Source: Escherichia coli 042 (lineage in GTDB: Bacteria > Pseudomonadota > Gammaproteobacteria > Enterobacterales > Enterobacteriaceae). Taken from it: a stretch of DNA of 64,000 nt. Below, one piece after another: positions 2,539 through 7,497 of the stretch; the stretch's first letter is position 1; each line of letters opens with the position of its first letter. A model generated the notes under the pieces. The model was not told the DNA's origin. It made no database searches and saw only the letters and a list, made by a program, of their open reading frames with translations. The stretch is from NCBI RefSeq assembly GCF_000027125.1, contig NC_017626.1. One strand, 5' to 3'. The translations under genes and the position numbers were made by a program.

Positions 2539-2658
2539 CAGAACCATCGCCTCTCTGTGGTCCCGGTCATCATGACCGGGACCCGGACCGGCGCAACGGA
2601 TCTTCAACGCCACATTCGCTGGCATTAACAATAACATGATATTCATCACGGAGTGACT

Positions 2659-5175
2659 ATGTTACAGATAGTCGGCGCGCTGATCCTGCTGATCGCAGGA
2701 TTTGCCATTCTTCGCCTTTTGTTCAGAGCATTAATCAGCACGGCTTCTGCGCTGGCAGGGCTCATATTGCTGTGTCTGTTCGGCCCGGCCTTACTGGCTG
2801 GCTATATCACCGAACGCATAACCCGGTTGTTCCATATTCGCTGGCTGGCAGGCGTATTTCTGACGATTGCCGGAATGATCATCAGCTTCATGTGGGGACT
2901 TGATGGTAAACATATCGCGCTGGAGGCTCACACCTTTGACTCTGTGAAATTTATTCTGACCACCGCTCTCGCCGGTGGTCTGCTGGCTGTTCCCCTGCAG
3001 ATCAAAAACATTCAGCAGAACGGGATCACACCAGAAGATATCAGCAAGGAAATTAACGGGTATTACTGCTGTTTTTATACTGCCTTTTTCCTTATGGCGT
3101 GTTCTGCATGCGCACCATTGATCGCGTTACAGTACGATATTTCACCGTCACTGATGTGGTGGGGCGGGTTGTTGTACTGGCTGGCTGCATTAGTGACGCT
3201 GCTATGGGCGGCCAGCCAAATCCAGGCGCTGAAAAAACTGACCTGTGCCATCAGCCAGACACTGGAAGAACAACCGGTGCTCAACAGTAAATCGTGGCTG
3301 ACCAGTTTGCAAAACGATTACAGCCTTCCTGACTCACTGACGGAGCGCATCTGGCTGACGCTCATTTCTCAACGGATTTCCCGGGGAGAGCTGAGGGAAT
3401 TTGAACTGGCAGACGGAAACTGGTTACTGAACAATGCCTGGTATGAAAGAAACATGGCAGGGTTTAACGAACAGTTGAAAGAGAACCTGTCATTCACACC
3501 TGATGAACTGAAAACGCTCTTCCGGAACCGCCTGAATTTATCACCGGAAGCGAATGACGATTTTCTCGATCGTTGCCTGGACGGCGGTGACTGGTATCCC
3601 TTTTCAGAAGGTCGCCGTTTTGTATCATTCCATCACGTGGATGAGCTTCGTATCTGTGCCTCCTGCGGGCTGACAGAAGTACATCATGCCCCGGAAAATC
3701 ATAAGCCGGATCCGGAATGGTACTGCTCCTCTCTTTGCCGCGAAACAGAAACACTGTGTCAGGAAATTTATGAACGCCCTTACAACAGCTTTATTTCCGA
3801 TGCAACGGCGAATGGTCTGATTCTCATGAAACTGCCGGAAACCTGGAGTACAAATGAGAAAATGTTTGCTTCCGGAGGGCAGGGACATGGGTTTGCCGCT
3901 GAACGGGGAAACCATATTGTCGACAGAGTCCGTCTGAAAAACGCACGGATCCTCGGTGATAATAATGCCAGAAATGGAGCAGACAGACTGGTCAGCGGAA
4001 CAGAAATCCAGACGAAATATTGTTCAACTGCAGCCCGTAGCGTCGGTGCGGCATTCGACGGACAAAACGGACAGTATCGTTACATGGGAAATAATGGCCC
4101 CATGCAACTGGAAGTCCCCCGTGATCAGTATGCCGGCGCTGTTGAAACCATGAGGAATAAGATCCGCGAAGGTAAAGTACCCGGTGTAACCGATCCCGCA
4201 GAAGCGTCCCGGCTGATTCGTCGGGGACATCTGACTTATACTCAGGCCCGTAATATCACCCGGTTCGGGACCATCGAATCGGTCACTTATGATATTGCCG
4301 AGGGTTCGGTTGTCAGTCTGGCGGCCGGAGGGATCAGTTTTGCCCTGACGGCATCGGTCTTCTGGCTCAGCACCGGCGATCGCGATGCTGCCCTGCAGAC
4401 AGCTGCTGTCCAGGCAGGAAAAACCTTCACCCGCACACTGGCTGTCTACGTCACAACCCAGCAACTCCACCGGCTCAGTGTTGTTCAGGGTATGCTGAAG
4501 CACATTGATTTTTCGACTGCCAGCCCGACTGTCCGACTGGCTCTTCAGAAGGGGACCGGTGCAGGAAATATCAGTGCCCTGAACAAAGTAATGAAGGGTA
4601 CGCTGGTGACATCTCTGGCACTGGTAGCTGTCACAACCGGCCCTGACATGATCAAAATGTTGCGGGGACGGATCTCCGGTGCGCAGTTCATCAGGAATCT
4701 TGCCGTGGCATCTTCCGGTGTGGCAGGTGGAGCTGTCGGGTCAGTGGCGGGCGGGATACTGTTCAGTCCACTGGGACCATTTGGTGCACTGACAGGGCGT
4801 GTGGTTGGCGGTGTTCTGGGGGGAATGATTGCCTCCGCTGTATCAGGAAAAATTGCCGGAGCGCTGGTTGAAGAAGATCGCGTCAAAATTCTGGCAATGA
4901 TTCAGGAGCAGGTGACATGGCTTGCCGGCAGTTTCCTGCTGACCGGACATGAGATTGAAAATCTGAACGAGAATCTGGCCCGTGTTATCGATCAGAATGC
5001 TCTGGAGATCATTTTCGCCGCCGGTATACAACAACGGGCCGCGACCAATATGTTAATCAAACCACTGGTGGTCAGTATCATCAGGCAACGCCCCGTCATG
5101 GAATATGATGCATCCCATCTCGGCAATATGGTTAACCGACTGGAAGAAGCATTACCCCCGGAGTTACCGGCATAA
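2659..5175 (+). CDS. yeeR: YeeR-family inner membrane protein, apparently full length (838 aa from ATG 2659; ORF opens at GTG 2653)
   Basis: GGAG at 2649-2652 six nt before ATG 2659; about six N-terminal hydrophobic helices; central soluble region with CxxC-x19-CxxxC; Gly/Ala-rich hydrophobic segment near the C-terminus; sits directly after flu. Confidence 0.6.
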   Translation: MLQIVGALILLIAGFAILRLLFRALISTASALAGLILLCLFGPALLAGYITERITRLFHIRWLAGVFLTIAGMIISFMWGLDGKHIALEAHTFDSVKFILTTALAGGLLAVPLQIKNIQQNGITPEDISKEINGYYCCFYTAFFLMACSACAPLIALQYDISPSLMWWGGLLYWLAALVTLLWAASQIQALKKLTCAISQTLEEQPVLNSKSWLTSLQNDYSLPDSLTERIWLTLISQRISRGELREFELADGNWLLNNAWYERNMAGFNEQLKENLSFTPDELKTLFRNRLNLSPEANDDFLDRCLDGGDWYPFSEGRRFVSFHHVDELRICASCGLTEVHHAPENHKPDPEWYCSSLCRETETLCQEIYERPYNSFISDATANGLILMKLPETWSTNEKMFASGGQGHGFAAERGNHIVDRVRLKNARILGDNNARNGADRLVSGTEIQTKYCSTAARSVGAAFDGQNGQYRYMGNNGPMQLEVPRDQYAGAVETMRNKIREGKVPGVTDPAEASRLIRRGHLTYTQARNITRFGTIESVTYDIAEGSVVSLAAGGISFALTASVFWLSTGDRDAALQTAAVQAGKTFTRTLAVYVTTQQLHRLSVVQGMLKHIDFSTASPTVRLALQKGTGAGNISALNKVMKGTLVTSLALVAVTTGPDMIKMLRGRISGAQFIRNLAVASSGVAGGAVGSVAGGILFSPLGPFGALTGRVVGGVLGGMIASAVSGKIAGALVEEDRVKILAMIQEQVTWLAGSFLLTGHEIENLNENLARVIDQNALEIIFAAGIQQRAATNMLIKPLVVSIIRQRPVMEYDASHLGNMVNRLEEALPPELPA

Positions 5176-5250
5176 CGGCTATTCTGCGCCTTTTACGCTT
5201 TATCACCTGATTTGTCAGTGTCATCGTCATGACTCAGAGAGGTAAATACC

Positions 5251-6117: not shown

Positions 6118-6936
6118 ATGCGACTAGCCAGTCGTTTTGGTTATGCGAACCAGATACGCCGTGACCGTCCGCTGACACACGAAGAACTGATGCACTATGT
6201 GCCGGGGATTTTCGGGGAAGATAAACACACGTCCCGAAGCCAGAACTATACGTACATCCCCACCATCACCGTACTGGAAAGCCTGCAGCGGGAAGGCTTT
6301 CAGCCATTCTTCGCCTGCCAGACCCGTGTGCGCGACCCGGGCCGCCGGGGATACACAAAACACATGCTGCGTCTGCGGCGGGCCGGAGAGATAAACGGAG
6401 AACATGTCCCTGAAATTATTCTGCTCAACTCTCATGACGGTACCTCCAGCTACCAGATGCTGCCGGGGTACTTCAGGTTCGTCTGCCAGAACGGCTGCGT
6501 CTGTGGTCAGTCTCTGGGGGAAGTACGTGTTCCGCACCGGGGAAATGTGGTGGACAGAGTCATTGAAGGGGCTTACGAGGTGGTGGGCGTGTTTGACCGG
6601 ATAGAGGAGAAGCGTGATGCCATGCAGTCGCTGGTCCTGCCGCCACCGGCACGCCAGGCGCTGGCACAGGCGGCACTGACTTACCGTTATGGTGACGAAC
6701 ATCAGCCCGTCACCACCGCCGACATTCTGACGCCGCGACGCCGGGAGGATTACGGTAAGGACCTGTGGAGCGCATATCAGACCATCCAGGAGAATATGCT
6801 GAAAGGCGGGATTTCCGGTCGCAGTGCAAAAGGAAAACGTATCCATACCCGGGCCATTCACAGCATTGATACCGACATTAAGCTCAATCGCGCATTGTGG
6901 GTGATGGCAGAAACGATGCTGGAGAGCCTGCGCTGA
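6118..6936 (+). CDS. Prophage protein, probably DUF932 family (YfjQ/YafZ-like), 272 aa
   Basis: AGGAG at 6107-6111 six nt before ATG; length close to the roughly 273-aa YfjQ/YafZ proteins of CP4 prophages; family assignment is from memory and not verified. Confidence 0.5.
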   Translation: MRLASRFGYANQIRRDRPLTHEELMHYVPGIFGEDKHTSRSQNYTYIPTITVLESLQREGFQPFFACQTRVRDPGRRGYTKHMLRLRRAGEINGEHVPEIILLNSHDGTSSYQMLPGYFRFVCQNGCVCGQSLGEVRVPHRGNVVDRVIEGAYEVVGVFDRIEEKRDAMQSLVLPPPARQALAQAALTYRYGDEHQPVTTADILTPRRREDYGKDLWSAYQTIQENMLKGGISGRSAKGKRIHTRAIHSIDTDIKLNRALWVMAETMLESLR

Positions 6937-7017
6937 TGCCGTTTCCCTGAGTGAGGGAATCATTCAGCTTTCGTTCCTGAAAAACACACATTTATTTGTT
7001 ATTTAAGGAGTTATCTC

Positions 7018-7497
7018 ATGAAAACCGTTTCTCAGAATACCCCCACAATTTATTCAGCTACAACACCAGAGAATAATCCGCCTCAGTTGGTTGCCAGCCT
7101 CGTCCCTGATGAACAGCGCATCAGCTTCTGGCCGCAGCATTTTGGCCTCATTCCACAGTGGGTGACCCTGGAGCCCCGTGTCTTCGGCTGGATGGACCGT
7201 CTGTGCGAAGACTACTGCGGTGGTATCTGGAATCTGTACACCCTGAACAACGGCGGGGCATTTATGGCACCCGAACCGGATGACGATGATGACGAAACAT
7301 GGGTACTGTTCAGTGCCATGAACGGTAACCGCGCAGAAATGAGCCCGGAAGCCGCCGGTATTGCCGCCTGTCTGATGACGTACAGTCATCATGCCTGTCG
7401 TACGGAGAATTATGCCATGACGGTCCATTATTACCGGTTGCGGGATTACGCCCTGCAGCATCCGGAATGCAGCGCCATTATGCGCATCATCGACTGA
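7018..7497 (+). CDS. Antirestriction protein (YfjX/YafX/KlcA-like), 159 aa
   Basis: AAGGAG RBS; acidic stretch PEPDDDDDETW; sits immediately upstream of the radC-like gene as yfjX/yafX do in CP4-57/CP4-6. Confidence 0.7.
   Translation: MKTVSQNTPTIYSATTPENNPPQLVASLVPDEQRISFWPQHFGLIPQWVTLEPRVFGWMDRLCEDYCGGIWNLYTLNNGGAFMAPEPDDDDDETWVLFSAMNGNRAEMSPEAAGIAACLMTYSHHACRTENYAMTVHYYRLRDYALQHPECSAIMRIID

Follow-up and report, generated by a model that had tools for sequence, protein, structure and literature searches.

Gene content of the Ag43 island arm

We analyzed a stretch of 64,000 nucleotides (nt) from the chromosome of Escherichia coli 042 (NC_017626.1, hereafter the window), focusing on the arm of an Ag43-associated island that runs from flu (agn43) through yeeR to the radC-like gene yeeS and a toxin-antitoxin end. 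The island occupies the CP4-44 site of E. coli K-12, and the window is collinear with K-12 through yeeW, tmaR, yeeA, sbmC, dacD and sbcB at 98.7–98.8% identity. Within the arm, blastn and a base-by-base comparison delimit a segment of 3,357 bp (window positions 4180–7536) that has no counterpart in K-12 MG1655.

The first 582 nt of flu (K-12 gene numbering), the gene of the Ag43 autotransporter, precede the window, and so does the OxyR/Dam-controlled agn43 promoter; the 3′ part of flu (1–2538) is 98.8% identical to MG1655 flu. Full-length yeeR follows at 2653–5175, a frame of 840 amino acids (aa) from its GTG or 838 aa from the ATG at 2659, which is the start annotated in both K-12 and RefSeq. 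Next are irmA (interleukin receptor mimic protein A, 5251–5706), which encodes a secreted 151-aa protein described previously (PMC4807369), a 77-aa DUF905 gene (aec70, YkfF-like, 5785–6018), a 272-aa DUF932 gene (aec71, YafZ/YfjQ-like, 6118–6936) and a 159-aa ArdB/KlcA-type antirestriction gene (7018–7497). Intact yeeS (158 aa) occupies 7513–7989; its frame opens at 7498, and the start is the RefSeq start of an identical locus in strain 550 (L005). All of these genes are on the plus strand, as is the toxin-antitoxin end common to K-12 and the window, namely yeeT (DUF987), cbeA, cbtA and yeeW (8052–9369). Beyond yeeW, the list of open reading frames (ORFs) places tmaR (yeeX) and yeeA on the opposite strand. 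A preliminary description of this sequence had listed a longer yeeR, a 151-aa ORF, a 77-aa ORF, a DUF932-like gene and an antirestriction gene between flu and the radC-like gene. The ORF list and Pfam agree with it: all five ORFs are present on the plus strand at these coordinates, and four of them have matches among curated Pfam families.

IrmA matches PF18673 with 127.8 bits (gathering threshold 25; E = 2e-37) and the crystallized IrmA (PDB 5EK5, 2.8e-83) over residues 24–151, and the two proteins are essentially identical. The DUF905 protein reaches 64.4 bits against PF06006 (cut-off 22.3; 1e-17) and matches YkfF (PDB 2HJJ, 1e-15), and the DUF932 protein reaches 177.7 bits against PF06067 (cut-off 23; 4e-52) and matches phrog_12094 (9e-129). 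For the antirestriction protein, 125.7 bits against PF03230 (cut-off 25; 8e-37), together with matches to ArdB (PDB 2WJ9, 2.5e-99) and KlcA (PDB 2KMG, 1e-20), places it in the ArdB/KlcA family. The RadC-like YeeS matches the JAB family PF04002 with 151.3 bits (cut-off 22.1; 1e-44). Scans of six proteins from the flu–yeeT interval (those of yeeR, irmA, the DUF905, DUF932 and antirestriction genes, and yeeS) found no phage structural or lysis family; the island's left part is beyond the window, and 'prophage' is here a conventional label for CP4-44.

The irmA gene lies directly 3′ of yeeR and yeeR directly 3′ of agn43, on one strand, and the identical RefSeq locus is annotated likewise. Moriel et al. 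2016 defined an OxyR-repressed agn43-yeeR-irmA operon and solved the structure of IrmA; they could not map the end of the operon by 3′ rapid amplification of cDNA ends (PMC4807369). A strong terminator-like hairpin on the plus strand at 5731–5759, 25 nt past the irmA stop, consists of a 12-bp stem followed by the T run TTTTATTTAT. Matched by consensus only, it could be where the agn43-yeeR-irmA transcript ends. A second hairpin of this kind, also a consensus match only, lies 3′ of the DUF905 gene (6040–6069, a 13-bp stem followed by a T run).

Every gene of the arm is already named in RefSeq, and the arrangement has close relatives. Islands of uropathogenic and enteroaggregative E. coli carry agn43-yeeR-irmA with aec70 and aec71 in the same order and orientation (PMC4807369 and PMC6480617; module 5 of AGI-3 is an example). 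Those islands are tRNA-linked pathogenicity islands, whereas the window cluster sits at the CP4-44 site by tmaR, yeeA and sbmC; otherwise we found nothing substantive that separates them. K-12 itself has two related right arms, in CP4-6 (yafZ(DUF932)...ykfF(DUF905)-yafX-ykfG(RadC)-ykfH-yafW-ykfI) and in CP4-57 (yfjQ(DUF932)...lfgA(antirestriction)-lfgB(RadC)-ypjJ-yfjZ-ypjF). Both share with the window a module of DUF932, DUF905, antirestriction, RadC-like and DUF987 genes and a type IV toxin-antitoxin pair, but they are without flu, yeeR and irmA. YfjW, found at the equivalent place of CP4-57, was considered as a YeeR paralog and ruled out, as it shows no similarity.

The K-12 junction and its effects on yeeR and yeeS

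The MG1655 annotation gives the order flu, yeeR (510 aa), yeeS (148 aa, with a 4-nt overlap with yeeR), yeeT, cbeA, cbtA and yeeW, and so confirms the flu, shorter yeeR and yeeS that the preliminary description had given for K-12. By blastn, window 1–4179 corresponds to MG1655 2072121–2076299 and window 7537–14000 to MG1655 from 2076302 onward, both at 98.8% identity. MG1655 is without the 3,357 bp in between and has a 2-nt filler, GA, instead. Its CP4-44 thus shares with the window the locus, the flanks and the toxin-antitoxin end, but differs in the lengths of yeeR (510 versus 838 aa) and yeeS (148 versus 158 aa) and in being without irmA, the DUF905 and DUF932 genes and ardB. The possibility that K-12 has the same gene content is therefore set aside. 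This difference comes from an alignment and not from a statistical pattern; gene content and breakpoints are direct observations, as is the distribution of both forms given below.

Read base by base, the left edge in the window is ...GGTAAAGTA|CCCGGTGTAACC... and the right edge is ...TTTCTGCCC|GGAGAGATGACG..., and the K-12 junction reads ...GGTAAAGTA-GA-GGAGAGATGACG... The motif CCCGG occurs at both edges (4180–4184 and 7534–7538). Neither repeats nor mobile-element ends were found at the edges of 4180–7536.

Both genes that flank the gap, yeeR and yeeS, are intact in the window and truncated in K-12. The K-12 yeeR frame starts at the ATG corresponding to window 2659 and runs collinearly for 507 codons to V509, then ends with GAG GAG AGA TGA. 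The K-12 protein therefore consists of residues 3–509 of the 840-aa protein followed by EER; the three scar codons for these residues, like the stop, derive from the filler and out-of-frame yeeS sequence. The preliminary description had expected the window to reveal which part of K-12 yeeR is a deletion scar. The scar could indeed be located at base level, but it is confined to the last three codons and the stop, the remainder being the authentic first 60% of YeeR, and the event clipped yeeS as well as yeeR. The ATGA by which yeeR and yeeS overlap in K-12 stems from the scar too. In K-12, yeeS has lost its first 10 codons (7513–7536 are deleted) and starts at an internal ATG (window 7543), which gives 148 instead of 158 aa. 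The K-12 gene models of yeeR (510 aa) and yeeS (148 aa) are thus both deletion products.

The long segment is common. Of 5,426 complete E. coli genomes, 1,794 contain at least 80% of it at a single location, several paralogous copies being frequent, and many sequenced E. coli chromosomes match it with 100% identity. A 42-mer spanning the K-12 junction occurred in 359 of the 5,426 genomes, once in each. All 60 junction matches that we sampled resembled laboratory derivatives of K-12; they included MG1655, W3110, DH5alpha, DH10B, J53, MC4100 and BW25113-type genomes, and the rest were other genomes of 4.5–4.9 Mb, many with MG1655-like coordinates. A 100-nt junction query retrieved 385 genomes compared with 359 for the 42-mer, a gap that probably reflects variants close to the junction.

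A K-12 deletion at CP4-44 is already known, and in this respect our observation is correct but ordinary. The truncation of K-12 yeeR and the absence of irmA, aec70 and aec71 are stated in the parts of Moriel 2016 (PMC4807369) and Bernabeu 2019 (PMC6480617) available to us, which do not name the loss of the antirestriction gene. What we add are breakpoints at base level, the truncation of the yeeS 5′ end, the finding that the antirestriction gene was lost too and, among the genomes sampled, the occurrence of the junction only in those of K-12 type. These details are relevant to users of K-12 for work on YeeR or of MG1655 as an irmA-null background, and are otherwise mostly bookkeeping.

Other decay alleles of yeeR occur. 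For instance, in-frame internal deletions remove approximately residues 313–458 (P0004, 38 contigs) or 398–485 (P0003) and affect the predicted catalytic motifs discussed below. An IS3-family insertion sequence (IS) lies about 800 nt into yeeR (near window 3456) in many strains and was seen at 3918–5226 of L005. A 2022 paper (PMC9431211) describes IS insertions and deletions as frequent in the agn43-yeeR-irmA cluster. One allele (P0020, on L009) fuses YeeR to the DUF932 protein, and its left breakpoint (about 3260–3280 of L009) lies at TAcCCGGT, the same site as in K-12 (window 4177–4185). As the left edge of two independent deletions, this site may be a minor hot spot for deletions. Separately, one Logan contig (L010, about 4515–4530) carries the K-12-type junction plus an additional G (GTAGAGGGAGAG), which yields an in-frame YeeR-YeeS fusion of 658 aa (P0018); this could reflect a misassembly or a genuine variant of K-12.

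Inferred loss of the segment from the K-12 lineage

The window almost certainly holds the intact right arm of an Ag43-associated island from which the K-12 lineage lost 3,357 bp in one deletion, likely by illegitimate joining. A single event with its ends inside yeeR and inside yeeS would have removed the last 331 yeeR codons, all of irmA and of the DUF905, DUF932 and antirestriction genes, and the first 10 yeeS codons. Illegitimate, microhomology-associated joining at CCCGG would be its most likely route, leaving the 2-nt filler. Direction and joining mechanism are what we infer here, and loss is by far the better reading. We prefer it because the long YeeR is conserved, because paralogous islands in K-12 keep the genes, because the long form is widespread and because the junction, in the sample, is of K-12 type. 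Full-length YeeR (820–850 aa) occurs across gamma- and beta-proteobacteria, among them Enterobacteriaceae, Shewanella, Pseudomonas, Methylomonas, Herbaspirillum and Cupriavidus, and ten of its invariant positions lie past residue 509 (D547, Q604, S675, Q678, N682, G715, G719, G723, D742 and R813). Likewise, CP4-6 and CP4-57 of K-12 retain DUF932, DUF905, antirestriction and radC genes in the same order. The suggestion in the preliminary description that the window preserves a less-decayed form of the island is borne out by the conservation of full-length YeeR and by the intact yeeR and yeeS.

Several observations weigh against this account or parts of it. The K-12 junction reads GTA-GAGG-AGAG, whereas a clean CCCGG microhomology join would give GTA-CCCGG-AGAG. 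Because the junction departs from the clean product, it may reflect a different joining mechanism or later point changes. No donor for the GA filler was found in the paralogous radC 5′ ends of CP4-6 and CP4-57. The junction genomes were sampled (60 of 359), so that there may be carriers outside the K-12 lineage. Finally, the segment that K-12 lost need not have equaled the window copy, as paralogous DUF932 copies differ by up to approximately 12%.

The K-12 gap might instead have arisen in two or more steps, for example by a deletion like that of the YeeR-DUF932 fusion allele followed by a second one, or by an IS-mediated adjacent deletion. That fusion allele is independent and uses the same left breakpoint site in yeeR, a 10-mer (CCGGAGAGAT) occurs both in the DUF932 gene (6383) and at the yeeS breakpoint (7535), and the 2-nt filler indicates that the join was not simple. 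We nevertheless consider several steps improbable, since a single event is more parsimonious and we saw no intermediate that has the flank haplotype of K-12. The IS3-family insertion that is common in yeeR sits near window 3456 rather than at 4179, so an adjacent deletion mediated by an IS is also ruled out as the origin of the breakpoint.

A different question is whether the 510-aa K-12 YeeR, annotated as 'inner membrane protein YeeR', is a functional short isoform and not a remnant. The truncated protein still contains the membrane helices, the Cys4 ribbon and all of the predicted nuclease-like core (411–505), and its frame stays open in all K-12 derivatives. We see only a slim chance of this, given that it is without 40% of a conserved protein, including the ten invariant positions and the glycine-zipper region, that its C-terminal end is scar-derived, and that Moriel et al. 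treat MG1655 as having no functional copy (PMC4807369).

Least of all do we believe that the short K-12 arrangement is ancestral and the extra genes an insertion, such as island cargo, in the window strain: such islands are mosaics and insertion sequences are known to enter this region (the IS3-family element inside yeeR in many strains), but the idea is effectively refuted because reading frames are truncated at both edges in K-12, an insertion could not restore in frame 331 conserved C-terminal yeeR codons and 10 N-terminal yeeS codons, other genera conserve full-length YeeR, among the genomes sampled only those of K-12 type carry the short junction and the segment edges are without repeats or mobile-element ends.

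Predicted fold of YeeR and further observations

The function of YeeR was left open by Moriel et al. (PMC4807369) and lay outside the scope of the preliminary description. Searches of YeeR against Pfam (a copy without PF27347), NCBIfam and PHROGs gave no matches, and PDB sequences searched with phmmer and hmmsearch yielded no meaningful match. PF27347 (YeeR_C) has a precomputed match in a 99%-identical protein (P0001) and in more than 100 homologs. The predicted layout of YeeR comprises N-terminal membrane helices, two small alpha/beta domains, a Cys4 ribbon, a PD-(D/E)xK-like core (411–505) and a C-terminal helical region rich in glycine zippers. The AlphaFold2 model of the full-length protein has a predicted local distance difference test score (pLDDT) of 75.6; residues 393–545, which include the core, reach a pLDDT of 81.4 and a predicted template modeling score of 0.78.

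In this model the core consists of helix 411–426, strands 431–433, 445–447 and 450–454, helix 460–465 and strand 485–488. This is a predicted alpha-beta-beta-beta-alpha-beta topology that would place E417 on helix 1, D444 at strand 2 and Q453 and K455 on strand 3. Invariant positions in an alignment of 38 homologs include H412-G-F-A-A-E417, D424, G442-A-D444-R, Q453-x-K455-Y and E487-V-P-x-D491. The topology, the acidic residue of helix 1, the D of strand 2 and the QxK of strand 3 fit what is expected of PD-(D/E)xK domains, as judged from the predicted structure only. Foldseek with the whole 840-aa model against the PDB returned no match at E ≤ 0.001 and only weak winged-helix matches, and none of 26 core-domain sequences matched a nuclease Pfam family in scans at E ≤ 10.

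A possible relative is the candidate defense protein PDC-M09B. In PADLOC, YeeR matches it weakly (6e-6, with no stretch passing alone; a short family member matched down to 6e-8), and hhalign gives a probability of 24% and E = 8e-4. The invariant residues of PDC-M09B (K-H-G-E-I-A-E, D109-Y, Q118-S-K120-F and P152-K-D) are collinear with the YeeR motifs, so that the two proteins have HGxxAE, D[YR], Q[ST]K[FY] and P[KR]D in common. Unlike PDC-M09B, YeeR has a large N-terminal membrane domain added. We regard as moderately supported the prediction that YeeR_C contains a PD-(D/E)xK-like domain remotely related to PDC-M09B. The further reading, that YeeR would be a membrane-anchored PD-(D/E)xK-type nuclease, a distant relative of PDC-M09B and a candidate component of anti-phage defense, is tentative and in our view rather unlikely; we offer a nuclease or defense function of YeeR as a hypothesis and not as a result. 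The arrangement of a PDC-M09 system is not found in the window, where the gene upstream of yeeR is flu, and there is no adjacent PDC-M09A in E. coli. A literature search for PDC-M09 or for YeeR function retrieved nothing relevant.

If the reading were true, E. coli islands would co-express a nuclease-like defense or toxin effector with the phase-variable Ag43. The frequent decay of yeeR (the K-12 truncation, the in-frame deletions that remove motifs and the IS insertions) would then reflect a cost of carriage. The truncated K-12 YeeR retains the predicted core and loses everything past residue 509. As a testable hypothesis, this lead is of modest added value.

YeeR homologs in Pseudomonas and Methylomonas occur in variable single-gene contexts. 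Because these contexts lack flu, irmA and the DUF932 module, the linkage of YeeR to Ag43 is specific to the Enterobacteriaceae. In islands of Citrobacter and other Enterobacteriaceae (L011, 6674–11523), a 68%-identical YeeR paralog directly follows the full candidate defense pair of PDC-M09A (3e-120) and PDC-M09B (5e-214), upstream of dndBCDE. The L011 island bears AlpA and WYL proteins and also a DUF932 gene and an Ag43-like autotransporter.

Elsewhere in the window, the interval between yeeW and tmaR (9370–10266) holds island-end remnants and is collinear with K-12. In the identical locus of strain 550, RefSeq annotates a DUF957 fragment, a transposase-domain fragment and an EutP/PduV-like yoeF ORF (corresponding to window 9810–10166) in this interval. 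At 15417–15492 the window has a 74-bp sbcB-plaP spacer with a terminator-like hairpin, where K-12 has tsuB-tsuA (yeeD-yeeE, approximately 1.5 kb). The O-antigen cluster between gnd and galF (31174–39535) has no megablast match longer than 200 nt to the O16 rfb region of K-12, and the O serogroup therefore differs from that of K-12. The his, gnd and colanic-acid genes that flank the cluster are 95.6–97.1% identical to K-12.

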